Shown: positions 3,729 through 62,161, counted from the first letter of the stretch. The stretch is DNA of 64,000 nt from an uncultured bacterium (GCA_963713955.1 OY970216.1:378252-442251), one strand, 5' to 3'. Notes: generated by a model from the letters alone, not told the origin. Made by a program: numbers and translations.

Positions 3729-4603
3729 GGTCGGTCGTACGTTTCTTGGACAACCGCTTTTTCAGGATACTGCCTTTCTTGTTGGTGTTTGCCGTTTTCG
3801 ATGTTTGTCTCTCGCGCTCGATCGGCGTTGCGGGGGAAACGCGGGCCGGCGAGTACTTTCTGCCCGTCGGCCAGGGAGACAGCGAACTTCTCGTTATGGA
3901 TTCCGGGGTCAAGATCTTGATCGACGGCGGCCCGGTTAATTCCCTCGTCGTGCAGAACCTGGATAAAATAATGGCCCCGCATGACAAATATATCGACGTG
4001 GTCATTTTGACGCATCCGGAACTGGATCACTTCGGAGGGCTTGCGGACGTTTTTAAGAGTTACCGGGTCGGCGCTTTTGCGTCTAATGGCCTCGGGGCTG
4101 GGACGGGTGCTTACGGGAATCTGGAAAACCTGATAGCGGTAAGCGGCGCGAAGACCGTGACGCTCGGCGCGGGGGATGCAGTCAAGAACGGGGGAAATTT
4201 AGTAAGAGTTTTATCTCCCCGTCCCGCTGAGATTGCCGATTCCTCCATAAACGACGCAGCTTTGGTTTTGGAAGTTACTTCCGGCGGAATCACTTCTCTT
4301 CTCGCGAGCGATATAAGTTCCAGTGTCGAAAGAAAAATAATCCCGTTCGTGGGGGAAGCGATTGACGTCCTGAAAGTCGCCCATCACGGTTCCAAGGATT
4401 CCTCTTCGGGTGAATTTTTGGCGGCGGTGAAGCCGGAGGTAGCCGTGATAGAGGTCGGGAAGAACTCTTACGGCCACCCCTCGCCCGAGGCGGTCGAGCG
4501 TCTTACCGGAGTTGTGGCGGCGTTATTCAGAACTGATGAGGCAGGGCTTTTGAAAATTTCCCGGAACGAAAACGGACGGCTTGAAGTGTTCAGGATGAAA
4601 TAG
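3701..4603 (+). CDS. comEC: ComEC C-terminal metallo-beta-lactamase domain (separate frame)
   Basis: HPELDHFGG and VAHHGS MBL motifs. The ORF overlaps the upstream comEC part in a different frame, and the start chosen is the internal ATG (MAKENL). Confidence 0.6.
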   Translation: MAKENLPELRSVVRFLDNRFFRILPFLLVFAVFDVCLSRSIGVAGETRAGEYFLPVGQGDSELLVMDSGVKILIDGGPVNSLVVQNLDKIMAPHDKYIDVVILTHPELDHFGGLADVFKSYRVGAFASNGLGAGTGAYGNLENLIAVSGAKTVTLGAGDAVKNGGNLVRVLSPRPAEIADSSINDAALVLEVTSGGITSLLASDISSSVERKIIPFVGEAIDVLKVAHHGSKDSSSGEFLAAVKPEVAVIEVGKNSYGHPSPEAVERLTGVVAALFRTDEAGLLKISRNENGRLEVFRMK

Positions 4604-4617
4604 TACAATGCAGCATA

Positions 4618-6027
4618 ATGACGAGAGCTTTATCAAGGGAAATAGCCGGGCTTGAGGGACAGGAGGCGGAGATGGCGGGGTGGATTGATACGCGCCGGGA
4701 TCACGGGAAGCTTATTTTCATCGATTTGAGGGACAGGAGCGGAATAACTCAGGTTGTCTTTACGCCAAAGGACGAGAAATTGCATTCTTTGGCCGAAAAA
4801 CTGCGTCCGGAATGGGTTATAAAAGTGAAAGGGACCGTCGGGAAGCGCCCGGCGGGAATGGAAAATCCCAAAATCCCGAGCGGCTACCATGAATTGCAAG
4901 CTGCCGCTTTAGAGATTATCGCAGAGGCAAAAACTCCTCCTTTTGATTTGAGCGGCGACGGGCGCGAAATCAACGAGGAAATACGAATGAAATATCGTTA
5001 CCTGGATTTGCGCCGGCCGCGGATGAGGAACAATCTCGCCGCACGCGCGAAGGTCAACAAATTCATCCGCGACTTTTTGACGGAAAGGGATTTCACGGAA
5101 GTGGAAACGCCAGTCATCGGCAAATCGACGCCCGAGGGTGCTCGGGACTATTTGATTCCAAGTCGTCTTTATCCGGGCGAATTCTACGCGCTTCCGCAAT
5201 CGCCCCAGCAGTACAAGCAGCTTTTGATGGTCGCGGGTCTCGAAAAATATTTCCAGATCGTCAGGTGTTTCCGCGACGAGGATACGCGGGGCGACCGGCA
5301 GCCCGAATTCACGCAGCTCGATCTCGAGATGAGTTTTATTTCCCAGGAGGAAGTTTTGGCACTCATCGAGGATCTCTATGCGAAGCTGGTGAAGGAACTA
5401 TATCCCGAAAAGAAGATCAAACAATTTCCGTTTCCGCGCCTGAACTATGCCGAGGTGATGGCGAAGTATAACTCGGACAAGCCGGACTTGCGGGACGACA
5501 AGAACAATCCGAATGAGCTCGCCTTCGCGTTCATCGTCAATTTCCCGATGTTCGAATGGAAAGAGACTGAAAAGCGCTGGGACGCCGTCCATCACCCCTT
5601 CACCATGCCGCAGGTCAAGGACGTCGACGATTTCTGGGTTCAGTTCAAGAAAGACCCGGCCTCCATTCCCGCCTTCCAATACGATTTCGTATTGAACGGC
5701 TATGAAATCGGCGGCGGTTCCATCCGGATTTACGATCCGAAACTCCTCACGGCCGTCTTCGAGGCGATGGGAAACGATCCGAAGGACATCCGGGAGAAAT
5801 TCGGCCACATGCTCGAGGCCTTTGAGTACGGCGTGCCGCCCCACGGGGGAATCGCGCCGGGAATCGACCGGTTCCTCATGATCATGCAAAACGAACCGAA
5901 CATCCGGGAGGTCATCGCGTTTCCGAAGACTGGGGACGGGAAGGATCTCATGATGCAAGCGCCGTCCGAGGTTTCGAAAGAGCAGCTGAAAGAATTACAC
6001 ATTAAAGTCGATCAAGAAAAGAAATAA
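4618..6027 (+). CDS. aspS: aspartyl-tRNA synthetase (short form without GAD insertion)
   Basis: QSPQQYKQLLM, FRDEDTRGDRQPEFTQLDLEMSF and GGGSIRI class IIb motifs. 469 aa. Confidence 0.85.
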   Translation: MTRALSREIAGLEGQEAEMAGWIDTRRDHGKLIFIDLRDRSGITQVVFTPKDEKLHSLAEKLRPEWVIKVKGTVGKRPAGMENPKIPSGYHELQAAALEIIAEAKTPPFDLSGDGREINEEIRMKYRYLDLRRPRMRNNLAARAKVNKFIRDFLTERDFTEVETPVIGKSTPEGARDYLIPSRLYPGEFYALPQSPQQYKQLLMVAGLEKYFQIVRCFRDEDTRGDRQPEFTQLDLEMSFISQEEVLALIEDLYAKLVKELYPEKKIKQFPFPRLNYAEVMAKYNSDKPDLRDDKNNPNELAFAFIVNFPMFEWKETEKRWDAVHHPFTMPQVKDVDDFWVQFKKDPASIPAFQYDFVLNGYEIGGGSIRIYDPKLLTAVFEAMGNDPKDIREKFGHMLEAFEYGVPPHGGIAPGIDRFLMIMQNEPNIREVIAFPKTGDGKDLMMQAPSEVSKEQLKELHIKVDQEKK

Positions 6028-25900: not shown

Positions 25901-26066
25901 TCTTACGCTATTGTTGGGATAGAAGGGGTCGGGGAGGAACGGGAAATGAGTTCCTCCCCGTGTAGGAAGCTATGAGAAACCGAGGGTTTCTCAGGAGCGA
26001 GTTGCTGCATAGCGACTCGCGACGCAGCATTGGCGGAAGTCGTTTTCTCCACTGCTGGGATCTGCT

Positions 26067-26255
26067 AAAAACTATTCAGCCTCCTCGCTAAAACCCTCGG
26101 TTATCAAAATCCTCCTCGCTCTTCGTCGGAATTATCCGCAAAATATCGAACTCGACCTAAAGGGACTCAAACAGCGATATTTTGCTCATTCCTTCCTCAT
26201 TGCTCGGGGATTTTGAAACAATCTCGAACAAACCGCTCAAAAGCTGAATAGTTTT
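26067..26255 (+). repeat. palindromic intergenic repeat, copy R1
   Basis: Bounded by AAAACTATTCAGC/GCTGAATAGTTTT inverted repeats. The inner stem is GCAAAATATCG...CGATATTTTGC. It shares CTCCTCGCT...TCGTCGGAAT and GCTCATTCCTTCCTCA..GCTCGGGGATTTTGA blocks with 6 other copies. Confidence 0.8.
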
Positions 26256-26270
26256 CATCGGAGTGCTTTT

Positions 26271-26300
26271 CAAAAGTTTGAATCCTCCCCTGTGCACTAA
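26271..26300 (+). repeat. degenerate copy l of conserved module
   Basis: CAAAAGTTTGAATCCTCCCCTGTGCACTAAA. Confidence 0.5.
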
Positions 26301-26303
26301 AGG

Positions 26304-26750
26304 CTAAACAAGAAGTTCAGCAAATATCTTATCGATATCTTTGAGGGTTTTATACATCTTAACAGAAAGATGAGGATTGCCTGCAATCATAGCGGAAAGT
26401 CTTCTTCCTTCCTGCTCTCGATAGAGGCACAAAATTCTCTTTTGTAAACTTTCTGCTATACCAAGCTCGTATCCTACCCCCAGACTCGCCGTGGTTACTT
26501 CGGCAACAACAATGTCGGATCCGGTGAGCCATTGAACATCTCTTGAGTAAATATCCTTATCGGATAGCTGTGCTTCCCCATAGCTACTTAGTTCCTTATT
26601 TCCAATGTGTTCCGTGGCTACTGTTCCAAAGGCAGAAAGCTTCTTTATGATCTCCAAATAAAGCTCCTTATCATCACGACCACCACGGATTGATCCCGCG
26701 AAGTATATCTTCATAAGGGGAATTATAAGCTTAAAATGCTGATTTTCCAA
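26304..26750 (-). CDS. 2'-deoxynucleoside 5'-phosphate N-hydrolase (DNPH1/Rcl-like, nucleoside 2-deoxyribosyltransferase fold)
   Basis: IYFAGSIRGGR...GTVATEHI...DIVVAEVTTASLGVGYELG...KRILCLY matches the DNPH1 family signature. TTG start. Confidence 0.7.
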   Translation of the reverse strand: MENQHFKLIIPLMKIYFAGSIRGGRDDKELYLEIIKKLSAFGTVATEHIGNKELSSYGEAQLSDKDIYSRDVQWLTGSDIVVAEVTTASLGVGYELGIAESLQKRILCLYREQEGRRLSAMIAGNPHLSVKMYKTLKDIDKIFAELLV

Positions 26751-26754
26751 CTAG

Positions 26755-26780
26755 AATCGTTCGAACATCGTCCACTACTG
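26755..26780 (+). repeat. conserved module copy a
   Basis: AATCGTTCGAACATCGTCCACTACTG, starting 5 bp beyond the DNPH1 start and lying upstream of the NTase gene. Confidence 0.8.
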
Positions 26781-26864
26781 TGCTGTGCGGTGTACTAGAA
26801 TAATGTGGAATGATCAAGGACGATCTGATTATCCATATTTCCAGAAACGATTTATACTTTAGAT

Positions 26865-27596
26865 ATGGAGGTAACAATCCCCGATTTTATTTCAAAAGAG
26901 ATAACCAAAATCAGAAGAGCCGAAGCCATATTGCTTACTGGATCACGAGTATTGGGAAAAGCTGGGGAAAACGCCGACTGGGACTTTTTTATTATTCTTA
27001 AGAACGGAACGCCGCGATGGCGTAAGACCTGGAAGGTGAAAAACACTTGGATAGAAATATTTTGCAATGATAAAAAGCAAATACTGAAAGAGTTTAGGGA
27101 GGATTTGGAAGAGGGCAAGGGCGTAACAACCTATATGTTTGCAACGGGTATTGTTATATCTGACCACAAGAATGTCTTGCATAATCTTGTTCGAATAGCG
27201 AAAAAGAATTGGGAGAGGGGACCAAATAAGTTAAAGCTTATAAAGAAGACATGGATTGATCTTGATATAAGCACATACCTGCAAGATATTGAGGACTGTA
27301 TCTATGATGATAATCCCGCTCATCTTATTTTCAATCATGCCGCGAACGAATTCGTAAATTATGACTACCGCCTGAGAAATATATGGATGCCACGACCTAA
27401 AGATAGACTTGAGGATATGAAAAAAAGATCTCCTGCAATTTATAAATTAATTCAGGAAATAAATTCCACCCAGAATTGGAAACTGAAAGCTAGAAAAGTA
27501 ATAGAATTGGGAGAATTGATTGGATCTCGGAATAACCTAAAACTCACAGGAGAAGCATATATACCCGCAAAAAAGTTGGCAATACGCAGGAAGTAA
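26865..27596 (+). CDS. pol-beta-superfamily nucleotidyltransferase (aminoglycoside/KNTase-like architecture)
   Basis: LTGSRVLGKAGENADWDFFIIL is the GS-x9-13-DxD NTase motif. A ~150-aa helical C-terminal half follows. Confidence 0.55.
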   Translation: MEVTIPDFISKEITKIRRAEAILLTGSRVLGKAGENADWDFFIILKNGTPRWRKTWKVKNTWIEIFCNDKKQILKEFREDLEEGKGVTTYMFATGIVISDHKNVLHNLVRIAKKNWERGPNKLKLIKKTWIDLDISTYLQDIEDCIYDDNPAHLIFNHAANEFVNYDYRLRNIWMPRPKDRLEDMKKRSPAIYKLIQEINSTQNWKLKARKVIELGELIGSRNNLKLTGEAYIPAKKLAIRRK

Positions 27597-27636
27597 TTCC
27601 TACCAGCACGATGTTCAATAGTTTAAAGTGTTAGCC

Positions 27637-27664
27637 AAAATCGTTCGAACATCGTCCACTACTG
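27637..27664 (+). repeat. conserved module copy b (5' part; interrupted by IS1595)
   Basis: AAAATCGTTCGAACATCGTCCACTACTG. The 3' part (CCGTGCACTACAAATTGACA) resumes at 28511-28530, after the IS. Confidence 0.8.
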
Positions 27665-28520
27665 TGCAGGGTATCCCTAGTCAATTGGCGCAAAGGTTAA
27701 CGACTTTTTGAGGTAGTTCCTGGGGTTTTGAAACAATTCCGGTGAGGAAAATCTGACGGAAAATTCCCTCACGTAGTCAGGCATCTTCTCCGCGGTCACG
27801 TGATGGTACATTCTCCTCACGAATGTCCTGAAGTTCCCGAACATCCCCTCGATCTCGGAGGTCTTCCCGAACTCCCATTTAGCATGGATGTCCCGTTCGT
27901 GTCTCACTGGCCACCATCTCTCGATGCCCCGGTATATGGCTGCCCCATCGGTATGGAGCCTCGCCCTCGGCTTCACGTACTCCATGAGGAACCGAACCGC
28001 TTCTGCTCGGTCAACCGACTTCTCGGGCAAAACCACGTACGCGACCTTTCTCGAGCGCTCCTCTTTCCCCATGATGAGTGACCAGCCCTTGCCGTATGCC
28101 TCATCGAGCTGCACGATCCGTGAGAGAATATCATGGTTTTGAGGCAGGTGTTCCCGGAAGCGGTCGTACCAGCGACGGATGGCCATCTCGGAAAGCCCCG
28201 AGAGGTTCATGGCTTGAACAACGGGTATCTTTTCGCACCACGCCCAGAGGATGAGCCACCACGTCTCAAGCGGGAGCTTCAGATCGCTTAACCAGGTGTA
28301 TGAGAGGAGGGTGAACCTTCTCCGACATCGGGGGCACCAGTACCGATCCTTCTCCTTCCAGACATCCCGGTACCGACAGCGGGGACAGTACACATTCTTG
28401 CCAAAGAGCGTTCTCCGGAGAAACTTCCTGATCTGGGCTTCCGACGGTATTTGATTCAATTGGTACATATCCTTCATGGTATGCGATATGCGCCAACATG
28501 ATTAGAGTACCCGTGCACTA
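27663..28520 (-). mobile_element. IS1595-family insertion sequence (~860 bp) inserted into a copy of the conserved 45-bp module
   Basis: Imperfect terminal IRs TGTGCAGGGTATCCCTAGTCAAT (left) and ATGATTAGAGTACCCGTGCAC (right, reverse complement). GTGCA is repeated at both junctions. Confidence 0.65.
27677..28477 (-). CDS. IS1595-family (ISXO2-like) DDE transposase
   Basis: N-terminal CPRC...CPRC zinc ribbon and an HTDGAAIY DDE segment. 266 aa. Confidence 0.8.
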   Translation of the reverse strand: MKDMYQLNQIPSEAQIRKFLRRTLFGKNVYCPRCRYRDVWKEKDRYWCPRCRRRFTLLSYTWLSDLKLPLETWWLILWAWCEKIPVVQAMNLSGLSEMAIRRWYDRFREHLPQNHDILSRIVQLDEAYGKGWSLIMGKEERSRKVAYVVLPEKSVDRAEAVRFLMEYVKPRARLHTDGAAIYRGIERWWPVRHERDIHAKWEFGKTSEIEGMFGNFRTFVRRMYHHVTAEKMPDYVREFSVRFSSPELFQNPRNYLKKSLTFAPID

Positions 28521-28530
28521 CAAATTGACA
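28511..28530 (+). repeat. 3' part of interrupted module copy b, carrying the TTGACA -35
   Basis: GTGCACTACAAATTGACA, compared with the consensus GTGCACTAAAATTGACA. Confidence 0.65.
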
Positions 28531-28598
28531 AAAAACATAGAAGTGTGTTATTGTGCTTTTGATTAAAACAGTTCATTCACTTATAAATAGGAGCTATC

Positions 28599-28949
28599 AT
28601 GAACCTCTTTCTTAGCGTCAGTCTTGTTGCGATACTCATTGGATTCGTTTGTGAATACTGGTATTCACACAGAAAGCTTGCATGGCGTATCTGGACTCCG
28701 ATTACCTTCAGTGTAGTAACTCTCCTTGCAGGGTTGACCTCTGTGGTATGTATGACCCTGGGAGTACTTACCAATACCGAATGGAATGCTGTCTCCGGAG
28801 CCGTTATCGTGATTTCCCAAATGAACTTTATGTGGTTTATTTTTATCACGATTTCAACAACGCTTCTCCTTTCCTTTGCGATACTTTCCATGTCAGATGT
28901 GTGGCTCTGGAAAATCAAACATAGGGTTACCAGACGACTACCAATATGA
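28599..28949 (+). CDS. small integral membrane protein (cassette cargo)
   Basis: 116 aa with 3-4 TMs, preceded by a TTGACA -35 that belongs to the interrupted module. Confidence 0.35.
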   Translation: MNLFLSVSLVAILIGFVCEYWYSHRKLAWRIWTPITFSVVTLLAGLTSVVCMTLGVLTNTEWNAVSGAVIVISQMNFMWFIFITISTTLLLSFAILSMSDVWLWKIKHRVTRRLPI

Positions 28950-29096
28950 GATATACGAATCCCTCGACAACTCGTAAACTATCCACTCCGTTAGATAGGC
29001 AATCCACTAACGGAGTTTCCCTTTATAATACAATATATTTCGAAACTTCTATTCCTATACCAAAGTTGATAGACTCATTTTTCGGAAATCTGTCCT

Positions 29097-29124
29097 AAAA
29101 TCGTTCGAACATCGTCCACTCCTG
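29097..29124 (+). repeat. conserved module copy c (exact 28-mer) plus hairpin
   Basis: AAAATCGTTCGAACATCGTCCACTCCTG, then a CGCTGCGCAGTGTGG stem and an extended -10 TGATATAAT at 29152-29160. Confidence 0.85.
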
Positions 29125-29202
29125 CGCTGCGCAGTGTGGGCAAAGAAAAAATGATATAATTCTTGAAAGGCCGATGTGCTTAATTAATCTCATTATAAAA
29201 AC

Positions 29203-29355
29203 ATGGTAAGAGGAAACTTCATTGGCGCGGCGATTGTCGCAATAATCTACACGGTCTATATTTTATGGAATCCGCTTCCACGAACCACAGAAATAATATT
29301 ATTAGTGGTTCTTAATGCTTTAACTATCGTATTGATGGCTTTTGCATTCAGATAA
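29203..29355 (+). CDS. small membrane protein (50 aa), cassette cargo
   Basis: MVRGNFIGAAIVAIIYTVYILWNPLPRTTEIILLVVLNALTIVLMAFAFR. Preceded by module copy c and an extended -10. It is below the ORF-track length cutoff. Confidence 0.3.
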   Translation: MVRGNFIGAAIVAIIYTVYILWNPLPRTTEIILLVVLNALTIVLMAFAFR

Positions 29356-29408
29356 AAAGTTGAATCTCTCAGAGAATCGAGCTGCCGGTTTTAAGCGCGG
29401 CTCAAACA

Positions 29409-29427
29409 CCGTCCACTCCTGTACACC
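29409..29427 (+). repeat. partial (3' half) copy d of conserved module
   Basis: CCGTCCACTCCTGTACACC with the 5' half replaced. It lies just upstream of IS3 copy 1. Confidence 0.6.
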
Positions 29428-29583
29428 AACTTGCCTAAAACTGCACATTTACCTCACTTACCAGAGGGGATTTTTTGTGCTATGATATCGTCAAACATCA
29501 TGAAGAAGTTGGCCTTGTTTGATATTGACTGTTCCGGATAGGAAAATTTAGACACAAAGGTCGGAACAAATTACCATTGTGTC

Positions 29584-29847
29584 ATGGCTAACAAAAAAGG
29601 ATATCGGGTAGCGAAAGAGGTAAAAGCGGAGATTGTCCGCCGCGTGAAGGAAGAAGGCGTCTCCGTCGCAGAAGCGGCAAAAGATGCAGGCGTCCACGAG
29701 ACAACCGTGTATGGATGGCTCGGCGCCGGTGCCACGAGCGCTCCCTCCTGGGGAGAAATCAATCGCCTAAAGAAACAGAATCAGGAACTCTTCGAAGTGA
29801 TCGGTGAACTCACGATCAAGCTGTCCCAGACCCAAAAAAAGAATTGA
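29584..29847 (+). CDS. IS3 transposase OrfA (HTH)
   Basis: 87-aa HTH/leucine-zipper OrfA ending at AAAAAAAG. Confidence 0.8.
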   Translation: MANKKGYRVAKEVKAEIVRRVKEEGVSVAEAAKDAGVHETTVYGWLGAGATSAPSWGEINRLKKQNQELFEVIGELTIKLSQTQKKN

Positions 29848-30626
29848 GCAGGGAAAGGAACGTATCCGCCCTGGCTCGCGCCATGGGTGTCTCGCGCTCA
29901 TCGCTCTATTACGTCGCAACGCAGGACAAGAAGGATTGGGCATTAAAGGTCCGGACGGAGGAGGTGCTTCACGAGCATCCCTCATACGGCTCACGCCGAC
30001 TGGCGATTGCGCTCGGCATCGGCAGACCGAGAGCGCAACGGGTCATGCGGATTTACGGCATCAAGCCCTACCGCAGGCATGGGAGAAAATACAGGAAATC
30101 CAAGGCGGAACGGCACTTCCCGAACCTCCTCCTCGGCATTATGCCATCATATGCGAACCATGTCTGGGCGACGGATTTCACGGAGCTTGTCTTTCACGGG
30201 AAGAAGCTGTACGTATCAACGATCCTTAACCTGTTTACGAGGCAACTGATGGGCGTTCATGTGGCGACCCGGAAGGGATCGACGCTCACCATCCAAACTC
30301 TGGCGAACGCGCTCTTCCATTGCCCGCGACCCGTGATCTTCCATTCTGACAACGGGAGGGAATACGAAGCGAAGGCGTTCATCGCTATGCTTGAGCGCTA
30401 CGGCATCACCATCTCCCGCTCACGCCCCGGATCGCCGTGGGAGAACGGATACCAAGAATCTTTCTACGGAAAATTCAAAATGGATCTTGGCGATCCTAAT
30501 CGGTTCAGATCCTTAGGGGAACTTGTGGCGGAGATCTACCGAACGCTTTGGGAGTACAACCATACAAGAATCCACTCCGCTCTCAGGATGCCGCCTTCGG
30601 TGTTTGCAGAGAAGATAGCAGTGTGA
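29844..30626 (+). CDS. IS3 transposase OrfB (DDE integrase core), -1 frame
   Basis: HSDNGREYEAK, WENGYQESFYGKFK and NHTRIHSAL integrase-core motifs. Frame -1 relative to orfA. Confidence 0.8.
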   Translation: MSRERNVSALARAMGVSRSSLYYVATQDKKDWALKVRTEEVLHEHPSYGSRRLAIALGIGRPRAQRVMRIYGIKPYRRHGRKYRKSKAERHFPNLLLGIMPSYANHVWATDFTELVFHGKKLYVSTILNLFTRQLMGVHVATRKGSTLTIQTLANALFHCPRPVIFHSDNGREYEAKAFIAMLERYGITISRSRPGSPWENGYQESFYGKFKMDLGDPNRFRSLGELVAEIYRTLWEYNHTRIHSALRMPPSVFAEKIAV

Positions 30627-30969
30627 GAGAATGAAAAAACGACGAGAAAACTTGTCGAGTGACTGTCTAAAGAAACCTATCCATCACACCGGCCCAATCA
30701 GTACGAAATAAGAAGTATTTCAAGTCCGACAAGATGGGTCACCGCCACTTGTGGTCAAAGACCCAATGGGTTGAGTTTCTAAAAAACTACTATAAGATCA
30801 AAGAAGCAAGAGTGGTTAGAGCGATTCGAAAAGATGACCTGGTTATAGCTCTTACTAAAAAGTAGATATTATTTTAACTAATCGGAATTTGTCCCTTCCG
30901 TCATTTTCTCCCACTGGCCTGACCCCCATATATTAGACACAAAGGTCGAAGTCAATATACCCTTGTGTC

Positions 30970-31227
30970 ATGAAGAAAACATATCGCACTGCTCCCGAGG
31001 TGAAGGAGCAGATATTGAAGAGAATCAAGGAGGAAGGGATCCCGGTCGTCCAGGCCGCCAAGGAACACGGTCTGAATCCCGCCACCATATACAACTGGCT
31101 GGGAAGGGGCGTGAAAGGCACCCCCACGATCGGTGAACTCGTCCGCCTCAAGCGCCAGAACGAAGAGCTCCTCGCCCTCGTGGGCGAGCTCACCCTGGCC
31201 TCCTCACGCACTCAAAAAAAGCGTTGA
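30970..31227 (+). CDS. IS3 transposase OrfA
   Basis: 85 aa, identical to the 61072-61329 product. Confidence 0.8.
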   Translation: MKKTYRTAPEVKEQILKRIKEEGIPVVQAAKEHGLNPATIYNWLGRGVKGTPTIGELVRLKRQNEELLALVGELTLASSRTQKKR

Positions 31228-32033
31228 TCAAAAAGCAGAAGAAGACGAAGTGGGAACTTGCCCGTGAACTCGGCCTCTCCCGCGCCTCCCTCTACTATGT
31301 CTCGAAACAATCGCCCAAGGATTGGTCGCTCAAGGAAAGGATCATATCAGTCTTGAGAGACCATCCTTCATACGGCTTCAGAAGAGTGGCTTTGGAGCTC
31401 AAGATCAACAAAAAAAGAGCCCAACGGGTGATGAGGCTCTTCGGGATGAAGGCATATCGGAGAAGGGGCAGAAGGCCAAGGAAAACGGGCTTCTCGAGTA
31501 TCCTGTATCCCAATCTCCTTCAGAAGAACTTCCCCAAAGGATTGAACGATATCTGGGTGGCGGACTTCACGTACATCCCGTACCAAGGGAAGTTCCTGTA
31601 TCTCGCCACCGTGATGGATTTGTTTGCGAGGGAGATCGTGGGCTGGGCCGTGATGAATACCCACTCGGTGCCTCTGGTCCTCCAGGCACTCTTCTCCGCG
31701 GCGGAACATCATCCGAGACCCAACATCTTCCACTCGGACAACGGAAGGGAGTATGGCTCAAGGATCTTCACCGGAGCTCTTTTGAACCTCGGCGTCAGGA
31801 TATCGAGATCGAGGAAGTCATCGCCATGGGAGAACGGCTACCAGGAGTCCTTCTACTCCCAGTTCAAGGTGGATCTGGGCGATCCGGAGAGGTTCAAATC
31901 GCTGGGAGAGCTGGTCTACGAGATCCATCGCCTGGTCTGGGACTACAACCACCGGAGAATCCACTCCGCCCTCAGGATGCCGCCTGCACTGTTCTCGAAT
32001 CGCTACCAGAAACTTGTCGAAAAAGTGTCTTAA
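31224..32033 (+). CDS. IS3 transposase OrfB (-1 frame)
   Basis: HSDNGREYGSR...WENGYQESFYSQFK...NHRRIHSAL. Identical to the 61326-62135 product. Confidence 0.8.
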   Translation: MIKKQKKTKWELARELGLSRASLYYVSKQSPKDWSLKERIISVLRDHPSYGFRRVALELKINKKRAQRVMRLFGMKAYRRRGRRPRKTGFSSILYPNLLQKNFPKGLNDIWVADFTYIPYQGKFLYLATVMDLFAREIVGWAVMNTHSVPLVLQALFSAAEHHPRPNIFHSDNGREYGSRIFTGALLNLGVRISRSRKSSPWENGYQESFYSQFKVDLGDPERFKSLGELVYEIHRLVWDYNHRRIHSALRMPPALFSNRYQKLVEKVS

Positions 32034-32078
32034 CTTTGGGGGTCTTTACAATCAGATAGAAAAAGAATCCTTAATGCG

Positions 32079-32381
32079 GTGAGAAGAAGTAAATCTAAAA
32101 GGATAATCATTACGCACGGCACTTATACGTTGCCGGACACCGCGAGATATCTGAAAGCAAATCTAAAAAGTTCAAGTAAGATAATCATCTTCGTGTGCTC
32201 GATGATTCCGCTCGTTGGATTTACTCCGACAGATGCGGGATTCAATATTGGCTATGCGATGGCGAAAACACAGGACTTATCAGAAGGGATCTATGTTTGT
32301 ATGAATGGGAGAATCTTCGCTCCGGAAGAAGTAGTAAAGATCCTTTCCGAGGGGAGATTCGGGTCAATATTCACGAAGTAA
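32079..32381 (+). pseudogene. L-asparaginase-like C-terminal fragment, probably truncated by IS3 copy 2
   Basis: IIITHGTYTLPDTARYL...VCMNGRIFAPEEVVK resembles the asparaginase THGTDT and C-terminal segment. The ORF begins 29 bp after the IS right end and has no N-terminal domain. Confidence 0.4.
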
Positions 32382-32421
32382 AACATACTCTTTATTGCTG
32401 TTTACCTTCTGGAGATTAGCT

Positions 32422-32449
32422 AAAATCGTTCGAACATCGTCCACTCCTG
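32422..32449 (+). repeat. conserved module copy e (exact 28-mer)
   Basis: AAAATCGTTCGAACATCGTCCACTCCTG followed by ACAAAATTGACA (-35 at 32456-32461). Confidence 0.85.
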
Positions 32450-32553
32450 ACAAAATTGACAAATGCTAAATAAAGTGCTATTCTTTTAATAGTTCCTGTT
32501 CGTATGAATAGGTCGTCTCGAAAGAGACAAGAGAACCTCATCTCCACCCTTTC

Positions 32554-32898
32554 ATGGAGATGAGAACATTCACAAGAAGTAATAAAATGCCGGAGGTTAG
32601 TATGGCTAAAGAAAAAATTGAAGCCTTGCCTCAAGTGGGACTGACTCCCGCGCAGTTGATTCTGAAGCTGTATGACTATGTAATCCTCAACTGCAAGAAG
32701 CAGAGCACTTCCAAGGTAAATGCTGGGTTAACGCAATTGATTGCAGCATTAAATTTCGATTACAGGGAAGTTGCTCTTGGACTCTTCCGCTTATACAGAT
32801 ATTGTCAGGACAAGTCGAGGAAAGGTGATTTTAAAGAGGTAGAGAGCATCATAGGTGAGCTCCGCGCTACATGGGCGGAAGCATTCAAGTTATCTTAG
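32554..32898 (+). CDS. FliS-like four-helix protein (flagellar export chaperone family resemblance)
   Basis: LTPAQLILKLYDYVILNCKK...NFDYREVALGLFRLYRYCQDKSRKGDFKEV...LRATWAEAF follows the FliS pattern. The likely start is 32608 (MAKEK). Confidence 0.4.
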   Translation: MEMRTFTRSNKMPEVSMAKEKIEALPQVGLTPAQLILKLYDYVILNCKKQSTSKVNAGLTQLIAALNFDYREVALGLFRLYRYCQDKSRKGDFKEVESIIGELRATWAEAFKLS

Positions 32899-32990
32899 GA
32901 GACAGAGGAAGCAATGTTTCTTGTCTCTATTCTTGGGGGTGGGTCCTACGACTTGCTCCCTCGATTTTTTATAGCTACCCAGAGCTGTTC

Positions 32991-33013
32991 AAAAATCGTT
33001 CACTACTGGGCAC
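32991..33013 (+). repeat. module copy f with internal 11-bp deletion
   Basis: AAAAATCGTT-CACTACTGGGCAC: lacks CGAACATCGTC, exactly between the ATCGTTC/ATCGTCC direct repeats. Followed by TAAAATTGACT. Confidence 0.7.
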
Positions 33014-33018
33014 TAAAA

Positions 33019-33047
33019 TTGACTAGCAACTGGATGTGATTCATAAT
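33019..33047 (+). promoter_or_regulatory. sigma70-like promoter TTGACT-N17-CATAAT driven from module copy f
   Basis: Consensus-like -35 and -10 with 17-bp spacing, 85 bp upstream of the ORF at 33133. Confidence 0.5.
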
Positions 33048-33132
33048 ACTAGCCTGAAGTAGTACTGGGTTTTTATTTCAATTTAGATAAACAACTCATT
33101 TCACAAAACCATAAGGAAAGGAGAATAACGAG

Positions 33133-33546
33133 ATGGGTATAGCATTAACTTTACTCCTGCCTTCAAAGCGTTACAGCAGTAGAGTGTTGAAGCAGCCAGA
33201 TGTTTACTGCCCCGACCGCTTGGAGATGACAAAGGACAACGGAATCTTCGGCCAGTTGATAAAAATATCACACCCGCGGAATGACGGTTCAGGCATTCCC
33301 CTAAAACCCAGCATAAAGTCCCACCCTCTACCCAGTAAGCTGAGGGTTGCCTACTTAACCGAGGATGAAGATGGCGGTCTTCTTTCCACCAGGAAGGATG
33401 GATACCACGAGCCAATGAGGTTTGTGTATGCCAAAGATTTTGCACTTCTCGAGATGCCAGGCAACGCGAGTGATGTCAACAAAGCCATTGTTGCATTCAC
33501 TAAAGCAATGCCCCCCGATACACCACTCTTCTTGTTCTGGCATTAG
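33133..33546 (+). CDS. hypothetical protein (cassette cargo)
   Basis: 137-aa ORF downstream of the module copy f promoter (TTGACT-N17-CATAAT). Confidence 0.3.
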   Translation: MGIALTLLLPSKRYSSRVLKQPDVYCPDRLEMTKDNGIFGQLIKISHPRNDGSGIPLKPSIKSHPLPSKLRVAYLTEDEDGGLLSTRKDGYHEPMRFVYAKDFALLEMPGNASDVNKAIVAFTKAMPPDTPLFLFWH

Positions 33547-33624
33547 TGATGCACAGGCACATGTTCTTATTTCCAGATTTTTGTACAATACCCGTCACAA
33601 GTCCAATGTGGCGGGCCTTTCTTT

Positions 33625-33652
33625 CAAAACCGTTCGAACATCGTCCACTGTG
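33625..33652 (+). repeat. conserved module copy g (terminal copy of island 1)
   Basis: CAAAACCGTTCGAACATCGTCCACTGTG. Confidence 0.75.
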
Positions 33653-33718
33653 GCAGTTTTCTTTCATCTTTACACGAACAAGAATCACTTGTCTTTTGAG
33701 CGAGTTGTTCGAGGCTGT

Positions 33719-33857
33719 TAAAAAATCCCCGAGCGATGAGGAAGGAATGAGCACAATAGCGAATGTTTGAATCCCGCTGGTTTCATTAATGAAACCAAGG
33801 TTGAGTTCGCTATTGTGCGACTTTATTTCGATGAAGAGCGAGGAGGATTTTAGCAAC
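33719..33857 (-). repeat. palindromic intergenic repeat, copy R2 (inverted relative to R1)
   Basis: Reverse complement of the GCTCATTCCTTCCTCATCGCTCGGGGATTTT block. Inner stem GCACAATAGCG...CGCTATTGTGC with a GGTTTCATTAATGAAACC insert shared with copy R6. Confidence 0.8.
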
Positions 33858-33900
33858 CGAGAATTGCAGCGAAGAAGATAAGTGGTTCTTGTTCTTGCTC

Positions 33901-39087: not shown

Positions 39088-39235
39088 CTCTAAAATCCTC
39101 CTCGCTTCTCGTCGGAATCAAGCCGCAAAATATCGAACTCAACCTCGTCCGCCAGCTGGCGGAGGCGGATTCGGGATTCAAACATGCGATATTTTGCTCA
39201 TTCCTTCCTCAGGGCTCGGGGATTTTGACGAGATC
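39088..39235 (+). repeat. palindromic intergenic repeat, copy R3
   Basis: AAAATCCTCCTCGCTTCTCGTCGGAAT head. GCAAAATATCG...CGATATTTTGC stem. GCTCATTCCTTCCTCAGGGCTCGGGGATTTTGA tail. Confidence 0.8.
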
Positions 39236-42877: not shown

Positions 42878-43027
42878 CTGCCGGAAGGCGTTTCAAAATC
42901 CCCGAACGATGAGGAGAGAATAAGCAAAATATCGCTGTTTGAGTCCCTTCAGGTCGAGTTCGATATTTTGCGGATAATTCCGACGAAGCGGTCGGAGGAT
43001 TTTAATGCCTGGAGGTTTAAGTGAGAG
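42878..43027 (-). repeat. palindromic intergenic repeat, copy R4 (reverse orientation)
   Basis: TTCAAAATCCCCGAACGATGAGGAGAGAATAAGCAAAATATCG...CGATATTTTGC...CGACGAAGCGGTCGGAGGATTTT. Confidence 0.8.
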
Positions 43028-46524: not shown

Positions 46525-46810
46525 ACGAAGCAACCTCAAGCCCCTTCTCGCTAAAACCTCCGGATGCAAAAATTCTCCTCGCTCATCCTGGGAAACCGGC
46601 GAAATTTATCAAACTCAACCTAAAGGGATTCAGACAATGATAAATTTCTGTTTCCTCACGTCTTCGCTCAGGAATTTTTATGCATCCTCCGGCAAATCGC
46701 TCAAAGGGACTTGAGGTTGCTTCTTTGTGCAAGAATATTATGGGAAGATTCATTTTGCTAAAACTCGGGGATTTTGAGACGCCTTCCGGAAAAGCGTTCG
46801 AGAGGGTTTT
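46525..46810 (+). repeat. palindromic intergenic repeat, copy R5 (largest copy)
   Basis: Nested IRs CAACCTCAAGCCCC/GGGACTTGAGGTTG and CCGGATGCAAAAATT/AATTTTTATGCATCCTCCGG. The inner stem GAAATTTATCA...TGATAAATTTC covaries with other copies. Confidence 0.8.
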
Positions 46811-48261: not shown

Positions 48262-48482
48262 GAAAGGGAGGAAACCGAGCCCCTCTCGAGCGATTTGCCG
48301 GAAGGCGTTTCAAAATCCCCGAGCGATGAGGAAGGAATGAGCACAATAGCGAATGTTTGAATCCCGCTGGTTTCATTAATGAAACCAAGGTTGAGTTCGA
48401 TATTGTGCGATGCAATTCCGACGAAGCGGTCGGAGGATTTTGACGCCTGGAGGTTTAAGTGAGAGGGGGCTCGGTTTCCTCT
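48262..48482 (-). repeat. palindromic intergenic repeat, copy R6
   Basis: Bounded by a GGAAACCGAGCCCCTCTC / GAGAGGGGGCTCGGTTTCC 18-bp IR. Inner stem GCACAATAGCG...CGATATTGTGC with a GGTTTCATTAATGAAACC insert. Confidence 0.8.
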
Positions 48483-56028: not shown

Positions 56029-56072
56029 GGGGCTCGGGGATTTTGAAACAACCTCGAACAAATTCACTCAAG
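56029..56072 (+). repeat. partial tail copy (R7) of the palindromic repeat family
   Basis: GCTCGGGGATTTTGAAACAACCTCGAACAAATTCACTCAAGGG matches the R1 tail. Confidence 0.6.
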
Positions 56073-57947: not shown

Positions 57948-57975
57948 AAGTTCGAATTCTCTCCTGTGCACTAAA
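57948..57975 (+). repeat. degenerate copy k of conserved module
   Basis: AAAGTTCGAATTCTCTCCTGTGCACTAAA. Confidence 0.55.
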
Positions 57976-57981
57976 TGTTTT

Positions 57982-57990
57982 TGGTATAAT
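57982..57990 (+). promoter_or_regulatory. extended -10 (TGGTATAAT) after module copy k
   Basis: TGnTATAAT 10 bp before the ORF at 58001. Confidence 0.4.
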
Positions 57991-58000
57991 TAAAATACTG

Positions 58001-58204
58001 ATGATCGCATTAATAAGAAGATATAAAAAAGCGTTCATTGACGGCACCTTGATTGCTCTTCTAATACTGATTACGGTCATCTTCGGCGGGAAAAGTAAGA
58101 CAAGCGATCAACAAGCACAACTTGAGGCAGCATTGCAATCAGCTGTCTCAAGTAGCGTTGTGAATTCATCGACTGTTACTAATCAGTCATCTGCTGCCAA
58201 GTAA
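58001..58204 (+). CDS. small TM protein, hypothetical
   Basis: 67 aa with a single TM. Confidence 0.25.
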   Translation: MIALIRRYKKAFIDGTLIALLILITVIFGGKSKTSDQQAQLEAALQSAVSSSVVNSSTVTNQSSAAK

Positions 58205-58217
58205 TAACAAGCATGAA

Positions 58218-58898
58218 ATGCCAGTTGCCGAGGATCTATATAAAAAGATTAAGGGGGTAATATACGATTTGGACGGGACTATTATCTCAACTCAAAACTT
58301 GCACGAAAATGCTTGGCTTTCCACCGCTAATAAATTTGGGATAAAACTTACAAGAAGAAAGTTACTAGATCAGCGCGGTATATCCGATAAAGCCTTCGCC
58401 TCGGCTGTTTTTACAGGTGACAAAAAGAAATTGATTGACGATTTTGTGAACGCAAAAAGAGAATATGTGAGTGAGAATATAGATCAGATCAGTGTTTTCC
58501 CAGATGGGATGAAAGCGTTGGATGAATTAACCAAGAGGAACTTTAGGGTTTGGATTAGTACTTCCTCCGGAAAAAATTTTGTTAAGAAAATACTGGATAT
58601 CTTTCCGGAGTTAAAGAAATATGGAATTGTTTGGCGGGAGATGTATCTAGGAGAAAAGCCATCGCCAGAAATCTTGGACCTAACAGTCAAAAAGATGGGT
58701 TTGAAAAAAAGTGAAGTTATTTATGTAGGAGATGCTCTCAATGATTATGAAACGAGTGTTAATGGGGGTGTAAAGTTTGTATACTTCTGCCCTAAGGAAA
58801 ACAGTAAGGATTCCAGAATTCCCCAAAACATTCCAGTAATTTCTAATCACGAGGAGATTATGATATATTTGGAGGATATTAATAAAGATGGCAATTAG
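58218..58898 (+). CDS. HAD-superfamily hydrolase (beta-phosphoglucomutase/phosphatase-like)
   Basis: DLDGTIISTQ motif I and a GDALNDYE motif IV region. Confidence 0.7.
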   Translation: MPVAEDLYKKIKGVIYDLDGTIISTQNLHENAWLSTANKFGIKLTRRKLLDQRGISDKAFASAVFTGDKKKLIDDFVNAKREYVSENIDQISVFPDGMKALDELTKRNFRVWISTSSGKNFVKKILDIFPELKKYGIVWREMYLGEKPSPEILDLTVKKMGLKKSEVIYVGDALNDYETSVNGGVKFVYFCPKENSKDSRIPQNIPVISNHEEIMIYLEDINKDGN

Positions 58899-59274
58899 CG
58901 GTTGGATTTTAACATTCGGCATATCCGCATTTGGAGGATATGTTTTTCAGAACCTTTTCTCTGGAGAATATGAGGGCCATAGAGTTGAACGATCACTGCA
59001 CTTTCAGGTTCGGGGATATTATGTCCATATTCATCATTGGATCTACTCCACCTTGATAATCATAATTCTCATTTGTCTGAACGAGGTTAACCCTATTATT
59101 TTGGGCGTGCTCTCGGGTTTTATTATTCAAGGATTGACCTACCGTGATCGTTTCATAGTGGCTTATCCTAAAGATAAGTTTCACGAAATCTATGACAAGT
59201 GGAAACCGAAAGATGAACATTATAAAAAACCGTTTATTAATAAATTATTGGGGCTGAAAAGATCTGGAGCATAG
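58888..59274 (+). CDS. small membrane protein, hypothetical
   Basis: 128 aa with 3 TMs. Its stop abuts module copy h. Confidence 0.35.
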   Translation: MAISGWILTFGISAFGGYVFQNLFSGEYEGHRVERSLHFQVRGYYVHIHHWIYSTLIIIILICLNEVNPIILGVLSGFIIQGLTYRDRFIVAYPKDKFHEIYDKWKPKDEHYKKPFINKLLGLKRSGA

Positions 59275-59306
59275 AATTGTTCGAACATCGTCCACTCCTG
59301 TGCACC
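59275..59306 (+). repeat. conserved module copy h
   Basis: GAATTGTTCGAACATCGTCCACTCCTGTGCAC. Confidence 0.8.
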
Positions 59307-59327
59307 AAGACTATCTTCAGTCGGTTA

Positions 59328-59732
59328 CTATTCAGTTTTCGTCGTTTCGATATCCATGACAACATCGTGGATGCGCGTTATAGTTCCAAGAAGCTGCTCC
59401 TTAATTCCCTCCAAAGCTTTTAAAAGAGTTGCTCGTTTGTATTCGTCCTCTGTTAGACTGACTAGAATAGGATTAGGGGCACCACTGAATAGGGGACTTT
59501 CGGTCGGCTTTTTCTCCCGGCTGAATCTTTTTGCAATGGGCATGCCAGCAACCTCCTTTTCCAATTCTTCGATGATGCGGATGGCCTCATTGAGTTTAGC
59601 CCGTTCGGCCAATTCTTCAGCTCTCAATTTTGCCGCTTTGAAAACGGGGTCAGTTGGTTCCCATTGCGGCACTCCCTCTATTTTGTTCACGTTTTCAAAA
59701 CCAGGGGATTCCGGCTTTATTTTCTCGCTCAT
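59328..59732 (-). CDS. hypothetical protein
   Basis: 134 aa, charged and helical. No motif. Confidence 0.4.
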   Translation of the reverse strand: MSEKIKPESPGFENVNKIEGVPQWEPTDPVFKAAKLRAEELAERAKLNEAIRIIEELEKEVAGMPIAKRFSREKKPTESPLFSGAPNPILVSLTEDEYKRATLLKALEGIKEQLLGTITRIHDVVMDIETTKTE

Positions 59733-59766
59733 AGAAGAAACATATCACATTTTGGCATATCCGGTC

Positions 59767-59794
59767 AAAATCGTTCGAACATCGTCCACTCCTG
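59767..59794 (+). repeat. conserved module copy i (exact 28-mer)
   Basis: AAAATCGTTCGAACATCGTCCACTCCTG, followed by a GAGTATGTACTC palindrome and TATAAT at 59854-59859. Confidence 0.85.
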
Positions 59795-59866
59795 CGTACC
59801 AAGGTTGAGTATGTACTCAAGTATACCCACCTTACGAGGCGGACTTTTTACTATATAATCATACCG

Positions 59867-60601
59867 ATGGCTACTAAAGAAGTGCGAATTTTCAAAGATG
59901 CGGAGGGATTAAGCGAGTTCGCGGCGGAGATGTTTATTGAGCTATGTAACAACGCAGTTTCAGTGAAAAACCGGTTCTCGGTTGCGCTTTCAGGAGGCAC
60001 TACGCCTCGGCGACTGTATGAATTACTCTCGGGAGATAAATTCAAGGATAAAGTTGATTGGAGCAAAATCCATATTTTCTTTGGTGATGAGCGGTTTGTT
60101 CCCTCAGATGATCCACAAAGTAATTTCCGCATGACGCGAGAGACACTCCTCAGTAAAGTTCCCATTCCAATCGACAACATTCATGCAATAGCCACTGAAA
60201 GTATTAGTCCAGAGGAAGCAGCGAAGAAATATTCAACCGAAATGGAATTGTTTTTCAATAACAAGTTGCCAGTTTTTGATTTGATACTTCTTGGCGTGGG
60301 ATCGGACGGGCACGTCGCGTCGCTCTTCCCTGGGAGCACGGTGGACACCAAGGTTATAAGAAAATCCATGGCCGTCATTACCAATGCACCCAAGCCGCCT
60401 TCAACACGTTTATCTTTGACCTTAGAGGCAATCAATTCGTCTCTCAATGTGATTATGTTAGTTGCCGGGAAAGACAAAGCTGACGTCGTACGAAAAGTCA
60501 TCAATGACAAAACCCAAGAGAAGCTTGTTCTCGCAACACAAATTAAGCCTCAAAAAAGTATCACTTGGATTTTAGACAAGGCAGCAGCAGAATTTGTCTA
60601 G
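59867..60601 (+). CDS. pgl: 6-phosphogluconolactonase
   Basis: FSVALSGGTTPRRLYELL and GVGSDGHVASLFPG motifs of the Pgl/NagB family. Confidence 0.8.
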   Translation: MATKEVRIFKDAEGLSEFAAEMFIELCNNAVSVKNRFSVALSGGTTPRRLYELLSGDKFKDKVDWSKIHIFFGDERFVPSDDPQSNFRMTRETLLSKVPIPIDNIHAIATESISPEEAAKKYSTEMELFFNNKLPVFDLILLGVGSDGHVASLFPGSTVDTKVIRKSMAVITNAPKPPSTRLSLTLEAINSSLNVIMLVAGKDKADVVRKVINDKTQEKLVLATQIKPQKSITWILDKAAAEFV

Positions 60602-60635
60602 GAAAAAAGTTCGAACGTCCTCTACTCGGGTACTG
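60602..60635 (+). repeat. degenerate module copy j
   Basis: GAAAAAAGTTCGAACGTCCTCTACTC, then the GAGTATATACTCAAGTATACCCACC box shared with copy i. Confidence 0.55.
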
Positions 60636-60655
60636 TTTGAGTATATACTCAAGTA

Positions 60656-60681
60656 TACCCACCAAGGAGGTGGGTGTTTTT
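60656..60681 (+). terminator. rho-independent terminator-like hairpin
   Basis: CCCACC-aagga-GGTGGG followed by TGTTTTTG. Confidence 0.5.
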
Positions 60682-60768
60682 GTTAGGTAGAATGGGCTAA
60701 ACGGATTTTTGACTGAAAATCGTGGAGGGTTTAATATCTCTCTAGGATTATTTTCAACCAATTTATAG

Positions 60769-61038
60769 GTGAATGTCATGGCTGATCATTCTGATTATCT
60801 AATGAGAGAGGATTACTGCCGCCATATTTGTCACAAACCAGGACGTCGTTTCGTGTTCCATCTGATGCCATGTTGCAAAAAATGTGAACATTGCGGCCGT
60901 CAAATCAAAAAAGAAAGACACTCTGACCATGAGGAGAGGTGCAGAGACAGAAGAGTAAGGGTGGTGAAACTTGAAGGACAACTTCTCTACAAAGCGGATT
61001 ATTCGGATGTCTACTTTGGCCTGACCCCCATATATTAG
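60769..61038 (+). CDS. small Cys/His-rich protein; 3' end runs into IS3 copy 3 (possibly truncated)
   Basis: 89 aa with CRHICH...CCKKCEHCG. The last ~7 codons lie inside the IS left end. Confidence 0.3.
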   Translation: MNVMADHSDYLMREDYCRHICHKPGRRFVFHLMPCCKKCEHCGRQIKKERHSDHEERCRDRRVRVVKLEGQLLYKADYSDVYFGLTPIY

Positions 61039-61071
61039 ACACAAAGGTCGAAGTCAATATACCCTTGTGTC

Positions 61072-62135: not shown

Positions 62136-62161
62136 CTTTGGGGGTCTTTACACAGAAAAAT

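Follow-up and report, generated by a model that had tools for sequence, protein, structure and literature searches.

Genes between copies of a 33-bp repeat in a patescibacterial genome: a possible cassette system founded on a tRNA-3'-end-like site

Background

How does a bacterial genome come to hold a row of unrelated genes, each of them set between copies of the same short sequence? The question is raised by a stretch of 64,000 nucleotides from an uncultured bacterium (GCA_963713955.1, OY970216.1:378252-442251), the whole of which is called the window here, and first of all by its positions 26,271 to 33,718. An earlier, sequence-only reading of this DNA had described an accessory island there, in which a conserved repeat brackets every gene. 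The repeat is 33 bp long and will be called the F site; a shorter, related repeat is called the S site.

The host, from which the window was taken as part of an 804,691-bp contig, belongs to the phylum Patescibacteria, also called the Candidate Phyla Radiation (CPR), and the named homologues of its S9 protein are mostly from Patescibacteria or Jorgensenbacteria. CPR genomes are tiny, and little is known on how they acquire genes.

The answer proposed here is that the islands are cassette arrays, built by recombination at double-stranded F sites and founded on a site that resembles the 3' end of a tRNA. The chances of this being right are about even. A stronger version, which we hold only tentatively, is that Patescibacteria have a capture system of a kind that has not been described before. 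Such a system would take up units in either orientation, use F as an unfolded double-stranded site, start from S, operate at several loci and rely on a recombinase that is not of the integron type. Nothing relevant was found in the literature on the F sequence, or on cassette systems in this phylum.

If this is true, the arrays show modular gene capture in the CPR, with an integron-like outcome that is reached via a different type of site and, presumably, a different enzyme. Among the cargo are enzymes that act in nucleotide salvage or on sugar phosphates, small membrane proteins and orphans. In metagenomes, the conserved 33-mer can also serve as a practical probe with which to look for such islands and for the putative recombinase.

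The conserved sites

F is the 33-mer AAAATCGTTCGAACATCGTCCACTCCTGTGCAC. It can also be written as AAAATCGTTCGAACATCGTCCACTCCTG followed by TGCAC, where the break stands for the probable recombination junction. Aligned over 34 instances, some in the window and some in public contigs, it carries 1.4 to 2.0 bits of information at positions -4 to +17, and around 0.6 to 1.5 bits up to about +26. By about +30 this has dropped to about 0, and it is also about 0 to the left of the block. Since the information content is high inside the block and close to zero outside it, F is a sharply bounded 33-mer.

The first 28 bases of F, at up to 3 mismatches, match the window 6 times, against 0 matches in 100 shuffles. 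The matches start at 26753 (2 mismatches), 27637 (1), 29097 (0), 32422 (0), 59273 (2) and 59767 (0). A 16-nt core of F has 12 matches where 0.64 are expected; 10 of these are copies of the motif, and 2 lie inside transposase genes of the insertion sequence (IS) family IS3, at 31719 and 61821. The 10 core-matching copies and two S sites make 12 copies in the window, every one of them on the + strand.

Eight of these copies form island 1 (26.3-33.7 kb): four good ones (26753, 27637, 29097, 32422), three degenerate ones (29402, 32981, 33626) and a short one (26276). The other four form a second island at 57950-60636, with a short copy at 57950, good ones at 59273 and 59767, and a degenerate one at 60605. 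The sequence-only reading had the repeat right, but gave at least 9 copies for island 1, and knew of that one island only. It also mentioned three exact 28-mers. Three do exist, but only two of them are in island 1; the third is at 59767.

S is 22 nt long (GTTYGAATYCTNYCCTGYGCAC) and has GTTCGAA on the left and CCTGYGCAC on the right in common with F. In four out of five cases it is the first site of its array: at 26276 and 57950 in the window, at 158 in L013 and at 13879 in L007 (labels L002 to L035 denote sequence stretches outside the window that were used for comparison). The layout of S is that of tRNA positions 53-73: GTTCGAATCC comes first, and after it the 3' strands of the T-stem and of the acceptor stem, and then a discriminator base. 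The search pattern for S also matched the 3' end of a true tRNA-Asn in L008.

This layout suggests a different history, in which the F sites are leftover att sites of larger elements that inserted in tandem at tRNA 3' ends and then decayed, losing their integrases, so that the arrays are fossils. The three IS elements and the truncated asparaginase gene of island 1 are indeed marks of decay. Yet ARAGORN detects neither tRNA nor tmRNA genes in the window or at any of the arrays, there is no Rfam match at or near the sites, and F by inspection cannot form a T-arm. In addition, the units are uniformly small (300-950 bp), mostly one-gene and, in several genomes, tightly packed, which random decay would not yield. 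F is also near-identical between genomes whose common protein-coding gene is about 65-76% identical. That the arrays are fossils of this sort is quite improbable.

A coding role for F was also considered. The + strand could encode the C-terminal peptide KIVRTSSTPVH followed by a stop, and the - strand a mini-ORF (open reading frame) with a ribosome-binding site, MFERF and a stop. The copies do not keep a common reading frame or common stop codons, however, and both explanations were therefore rejected. F is not a repeat of the repetitive extragenic palindrome (REP) or miniature inverted-repeat transposable element (MITE) type either, being asymmetric, present in one orientation and confined to the islands.

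To the left of F, a second conserved block, CGTAATGGTTCAATAGCTTGGAAT, is found about 15-20 nt upstream in a subset of sites (L004 200-240, L006 127-165, L013 902-935 and window 27608-27625). Another subset (L010, L017 and L007 10740-10793) has a hairpin in common, CCAAATCTAAG...CTTAGATTTGG. F sites may form subfamilies with longer left arms.

Empty sites and other genomes

The islands have a GC content of 41.1%, against 50.6% for the core, and all 12 copies in the window are inside them. Beyond the window, two 10-kb stretches of this genome (L029, L035) contain no match to F or S.

Three relatives, with S9 proteins that are 74%, 72% and 68% identical, keep rpsI, a 442-aa CarboxypepD_reg-like gene (minus strand), murA, mreB, holB and frr in this order. 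At the locus of island 1, the window has 8,027 nt and the relatives have 740, 496-650 and 50 nt, with no F or S sites there in any of the three. Because these syntenic relatives have 50-740 nt at this place, island 1 is an insertion. F is also missing from every core promoter of the window, and about 110 kb of related genomes contain no copy of it.

Beyond the close relatives, a 20-nt core of F occurs in 4 of 185,579 species-representative genomes. Two of the four are actinobacterial metagenome-assembled genomes (MAGs), which is consistent with the roughly 1 chance match expected. The same core is in 13 metagenome contigs, with names that suggest peat, bog-lake and groundwater samples. It is in no viral contig, and phages, plasmids and IMG/VR gave chance-level partial matches only.

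Arrays are found in several of these places. L005, L007/L011, L010, L012, L013, L015 and L017 each have 2-5 copies of F on the same strand, 300-950 bp apart. Most intervals hold a single gene, and what one array carries is unrelated to what the others carry. NUDIX, GrpB, an NDT-like protein, an HD-domain protein, inositol monophosphatase and many proteins without a Pfam match are among this cargo. The arrays adjoin different core genes, which are rpsI in the window, rplK in L013 and rpsF in L007. Genes abut the F sites tightly, in either orientation. PADLOC gave no matches for anti-phage defence content. Given the empty sites in three relatives, the arrays in other genomes and the way homology stops at the motif (see below), the description of island 1 as a cassette-array-like accessory island has held up well.

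Single copies of F exist as well. One that is near-perfect is at 9018-9055 of L014 (contig Ga0326728_10024157, 58% GC), 15 nt upstream of a gene for an alpha/beta-hydrolase. The GC content of this contig and its genes (dipeptidase, 2-hydroxyacid dehydrogenase) look unlike CPR, and this F may be a case of cassette transfer outside the lineage. L002 (JAUXUB010000013.1) is an AT-rich MAG with a single F. It also has a block, GGATAATCTTATCCACA ... TATAATAAAAG, that is repeated before several pilin-like genes, at about 4130-4070, 2870-2800 and 1080-1020. These genes start with MRN.KGFASI.

Island 1 had been described as bounded by inverted copies of a palindromic repeat, R1 and R2. These are a true inverted pair, but they do not mark borders. 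The element is itself palindromic and about 140-200 bp long, so that an 'inverted copy' is uninformative. It belongs to a dispersed family that has at least 7 copies in the window, at 26082, 33693, 39090, 42886, 46543, 48288 and 56032, and an R1/R2-type repeat already follows rpsI in relatives that lack the island (L022 7380-7570, L025 10680-10890). The family predates the island. Its extents in the window are 26061-26262, 33693-33890, 39090-39228, 42886-43025, 46543-46705, 48288-48443 and 56032-56071, and it occupies many intergenic regions. It has no Rfam match. The family is a MITE-like or structured-RNA candidate, and fits the REP/MITE-type class of dispersed repeats.

Building an array

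Comparing arrays shows where homology ends. L015 and L017 have a common upstream flank and an identical F, and remain alike up to GCGCTAT, after which unrelated cassettes follow. L010 and L017 have only the hairpin and F in common. Across copies, similarity most often ends after ...CCACTCCTG, and TGCAC(TA) is kept in about 60% of them. The last F of island 1 breaks after CCACT. Read together, these breaks suggest a junction near the step from CCTG to TGCAC. With the junction at that place, the 28-mer would be the 3' end of one cassette, and TGCAC the start of the next.

Most cassettes would then be self-contained transcription units, each with a promoter and, as a rule, a single ORF; two of them also have a hairpin that resembles a terminator. 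A putative site-specific recombinase, encoded outside the window, would join a circular or otherwise incoming cassette that carries F to a resident S or F. Each insertion would add one gene and one further copy of the site, with the related 22-bp S opening each island. In this it would resemble the capture of cassettes by integrons, or the tandem accretion of elements at att sites.

There are observations that weigh against this. The first concerns the enzyme. Neither the 64-kb window nor the 10 kb to its left yielded a tyrosine or serine recombinase, and none was found beside the arrays in L007, L013, L014 and L015; for the window, the result applies to the Pfam families listed for ORFs of at least 70 aa. 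The sequence-only reading had said the same of the window, where only IS3 and IS1595 transposases were found. There is no integrase in any array examined. The core site of a tyrosine or serine recombinase would be expected to show dyad symmetry; by inspection F shows little, GTCCAC-TCCT-GTGCAC being the best found.

An S-like site in L005 is downstream of F sites. The pgl cassette of island 2 stands between direct repeats of about 75 nt (59767-59845, and 60605-60636 plus the next ~45 nt), which is longer than F, and homologous recombination therefore fits this cassette as well as site-specific recombination does.

Another difficulty is the gene for a 50-aa membrane protein, which is the only cargo found to be shared between arrays. 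In the window and in L007, its unit (promoter, 5' untranslated region or UTR, and ORF) is 86% identical, but stands in opposite orientations between F sites, with unrelated spacers. It follows that what the genomes have in common is the gene, and not the gene plus the site. L032 (10001-10156) keeps a recognisable promoter and 5' UTR of this gene, and F is absent beside it both there and in L033 (3424-3576). The protein has 757 homologues, and the best 120 of the 757 are 70-100% identical. It is a two-helix membrane protein of a highly conserved family, with named members from Staskawiczbacteria and Minisyncoccia, and comes without annotation or a conserved gene neighbourhood.

Finally, look-ups of the cassette nucleotidyltransferase, S9, IS3 OrfA, the IS1595 transposase and EF-P returned the same strain only. 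Since one strain of this genome is retrievable, no presence/absence polymorphism of single cassettes was seen.

Some of this could be explained by F being nothing but portable homology, perhaps spread by gene conversion. Cassettes would then be exchanged by RecA after natural transformation, and no dedicated recombinase would be needed, which agrees with none being found in the Pfam lists of the window. Genes for ComEC ('Competence' family) and for proteins resembling type IV pilins are indeed present in the window. L015 and L017 are mosaics in which some blocks are identical and others have diverged, and the long flanks of pgl provide homology beyond F. On the other hand, 33 bp is at the lower limit for RecA-dependent exchange. 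Homology also explains swaps between existing F sites, but not why F flanks every new gene, why its edges are sharp, or why a distinct S opens the arrays. We regard this explanation as unlikely.

Just left of window position 1, at 1081-2820 of L035, a homologue of the TraG/VirD4-type coupling protein (TrwB_AAD_bind, T4SS-DNA_transf) adjoins efp. Together with ComEC and the pilin-like genes, it points to machinery for DNA uptake or transfer.

Promoters and gene orientation

The sequence-only reading saw F as a portable module of operator plus promoter. Part of what it saw is there: good promoter-like sites of the type TTGACA-17-TAxxxT follow F at 28525, 32456 and 33019 with a constant offset (10/12 promoter matches), their -35 boxes being 6-10 nt to the right of F. 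This is true of 3 of the 12 copies only. The best -10 boxes are, by inspection, 41-59 nt from the start of F, and in L014 the start codon comes 15 nt after the end of F. The motif-gene-motif layout is also as it was described, except that two genes in the window are reversed (26304-26714 and 59328-59732). Across arrays, around 9 of 29 genes (~30%) are reversed. With the conserved block moreover ending at ...GTGCAC(TA), a fixed promoter module had to be abandoned.

Most units have a single ORF, and promoter-like sites are found within units. For the two reversed genes in the window, these sites (26750, 59768) touch or run into the left edge of the F that follows. Because promoter-like sites lie within units and terminator-like hairpins precede F (32935, 33591), each unit appears to be its own transcription unit, with F between the units.

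F could then be a cis-regulatory operator or insulator, read over all 33 bp by a dedicated protein that silences or isolates acquired units, while the arrays arise in some other way. The position of F, precisely in the gap that separates a unit's terminator from the promoter of the unit that follows, would suit such a role, and so would the nearby -35 boxes on both sides. ATCGT is also present twice in F, 11 bp apart, as read from the sequence. But the distance from F to the -10 box or start codon varies too much, F is missing from core promoters and relatives, and no candidate regulator was found in the arrays. The operator also leaves the S sites, the insertion of the island and the homology breaks at F unexplained. 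It is no likelier than exchange through homology, and we doubt it.

Other regulatory and chromosomal sites were considered and rejected. A sigma-70 promoter/operator regulon does not fit, as the spacing of the sites is not fixed, their orientation is not tied to that of the gene, and core promoters and relatives lack them. Extracytoplasmic function (ECF) or sigma-54 promoters, Ter, dif, parS and uptake sequences have, by inspection, the wrong spacing, symmetry or distribution.

Contents of the islands

Island 1 opens with the S site at 26276..26297 (GTTTGAATCCTCCCCTGTGCAC). The first cassette gene, at 26304..26714, is reversed (- strand) and encodes a nucleoside 2-deoxyribosyltransferase-like protein of 136 aa (Pfam Nuc_deoxyrib_tr). 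Its promoter at 26750-26722 abuts the left edge of the first F, which is a full 33-mer (26753..26785). A pol-beta-type nucleotidyltransferase gene of 243 aa (Pfam) follows on the + strand at 26865..27596.

The next F is split. Its left 32 nt are at 27637..27668 and the rest, GTGCACTACAAATTGACA, is at 28513-28530, with an IS1595-family element in between (27669..28512, - strand; Pfam). In the sequence GTGCA can be read on both sides of the element. The insertion point is near the proposed junction of F, with CTGTGCA before the element and GTGCAC after it. The element is a secondary insertion and is outside the cassette system. Beyond it is a + strand gene for a 116-aa membrane protein without Pfam match (28599..28949), which has the promoter-like site at 28525-28554.

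The F with an exact 28-mer at 29097..29129 is followed by the gene for the 50-aa membrane protein (29203..29355, + strand), whose family is widespread in Patescibacteria, and by a degenerate F, TCAAACACCGTCCACTCCTGTACAC, at 29402..29431. Two IS3-family elements, with a 43-aa ORF between them, then take up 29546..32059 on the + strand (~29546-30672 and ~30918-32059). Both are secondary insertions, and the second truncates the asparaginase gene. What is left of this gene, a cassette remnant at 32079..32381 (+ strand), covers Pfam positions 80-164 only.

At 32422..32449 there is an F with an exact 28-mer and a replaced right end, after which TTGACA-17-TATTCT follows at 32456. It precedes a FliS-like gene (32554..32898, + strand; Pfam) and a hairpin that looks like a terminator (32935-32960). 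Directly after the hairpin comes a degenerate F (32981..33015), which is followed at 33019 by the promoter-like TTGACT-17-CATAAT, and then by the gene for a 137-aa orphan (33133..33546, + strand) with a terminator-like hairpin at 33591-33615. Among 5.8 billion proteins, the orphan has no homologue but itself. The last F of island 1, at 33626..33649, is intact to ...CGTCCACT, where the likeness to F stops (GTGGCAG). Both the cargo and the IS elements, three in number, are as they had been named from the sequence: Pfam gives the deoxyribosyltransferase family, the pol-beta nucleotidyltransferase, FliS, the asparaginase fragment, IS1595 and the two IS3 elements.

Island 2 opens with the S site at 57950..57971 (GTTCGAATTCTCTCCTGTGCAC). 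Its first unit has three genes on the + strand (58001..59274), encoding a 67-aa ORF, a HAD hydrolase (226 aa) and a 128-aa membrane protein, and the last stop codon overlaps the F at 59273..59305. Next comes a reversed gene (59328..59732, - strand) of 134 aa without Pfam match. It has a promoter-like site (59768-59739) whose -35 box reaches into the left edge of the F at 59767..59799, an F with an exact 28-mer. That F continues into TTGAGTATGTACTCAAGTATACCCACC, which recurs after the next F. Between the two is pgl, for a 6-phosphogluconolactonase of 244 aa (Glucosamine_iso family), at 59867..60601 on the + strand. The last, degenerate F of the island is at 60605..60636. After both F sites that flank pgl there is a palindrome-containing TTGAGTATRTACTCAAGTATACCCACC, and then a hairpin and a T-run (59795-59845, 60627-60690).

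Directly upstream of island 2 is a gene for a cysteine-rich zinc-ribbon protein of about 585 aa without Pfam match (56119-57870). L013 has a homologue of it (3393-5171), 1.3 kb downstream of the L013 array, and a similar zinc-ribbon ORF from 5186. On the other side of the island, a long ORF from 60769 is apparently split by an IS3 element (~61020-62160) into segments 60769-61038 and 62160 to beyond 64000. This element looks near-identical to the one at ~30918-32059. Three of the four IS copies in the window are in or next to arrays.

Comparison with known systems

The logic of these arrays is integron-like, and they are not a classical integron. Their nearest analogues are integrons and att-site accretion; they are members of neither.

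The arrays of sedentary chromosomal integrons, and clusters of attC sites lacking integron-integrases (CALIN), are likewise made up of mostly single genes, unrelated or orphan and for the most part in one orientation, and after each gene comes a recombination-site-like repeat that is near-identical within an array. S takes the position of attI, and TGCAC to the right of the junction recurs like the TTRRRY of the next cassette. The sites themselves differ. Integron attC sites are imperfect palindromes of 55-140 nt (R''-L''...L'-R') that fold as single strands, whereas F is an asymmetric 33 bp without such a fold. Among 35 instances, no inverted partner of the core was found within 100 nt beyond what shuffled controls give. 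A 9-bp inverted partner exists only at the copy at 27637, and folding z-scores from -2.4 to +1.6 give no shared fold. A hairpin of the attC type is thereby rejected, as the sequence-only reading would have it. An integron cassette is as a rule a single promoterless ORF with its site, co-oriented with the array. Here there are at least 2 arrays per genome at unrelated loci, cassettes have their own promoters, and about 30% are reversed. Integrons also have an IntI-type tyrosine recombinase next to the array, along with attI and Pc. No IntI was found here, and there is no Phage_integrase-type family among the families listed for the window or beside L007, L013, L014 and L015. With no attC fold and no such family, membership of the integrons was rejected.

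Tandem accretion at att sites is known from the cis-mobilizable elements of streptococcal integrative and conjugative elements (ICEs), and from composite islands of the staphylococcal cassette chromosome (SCC). There too, direct repeats of one identity block flank every unit, and units come without an integrase of their own. Tycheposon-type islands are reported to have repeated partial tRNA ends (bioRxiv 10.1101/2020.12.28.424599). Such islands and accretion resemble the present arrays in that S is tRNA-3'-end-like, and the islands are low in GC and absent from relatives. Unlike the kilobase-scale elements of att-site accretion, the units here are mostly single genes of 0.3-0.9 kb, no intact tRNA or target gene is at the edge of an array, and no array has an integrase-bearing element.

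The pdif (XerC/XerD) modules of Acinetobacter plasmids use sites of about 28 bp in which a 6-bp spacer separates two inverted arms of 11 bp, and the sites on either side of a module are in opposite orientations. Like F, these short sites bracket small modules of unrelated genes. F by inspection lacks the inverted arms, and all of its copies are direct, so Xer/pdif modules were rejected.

CRISPR arrays, finally, also have direct repeats with sharp edges, degenerate end copies and variable inserts, and a repeat of 33 bp would fit. The Pfam lists for the window contain no Cas families. Unlike CRISPR spacers of 26-72 bp, the inserts between F sites are whole genes, spaced irregularly at 297-3325 bp.

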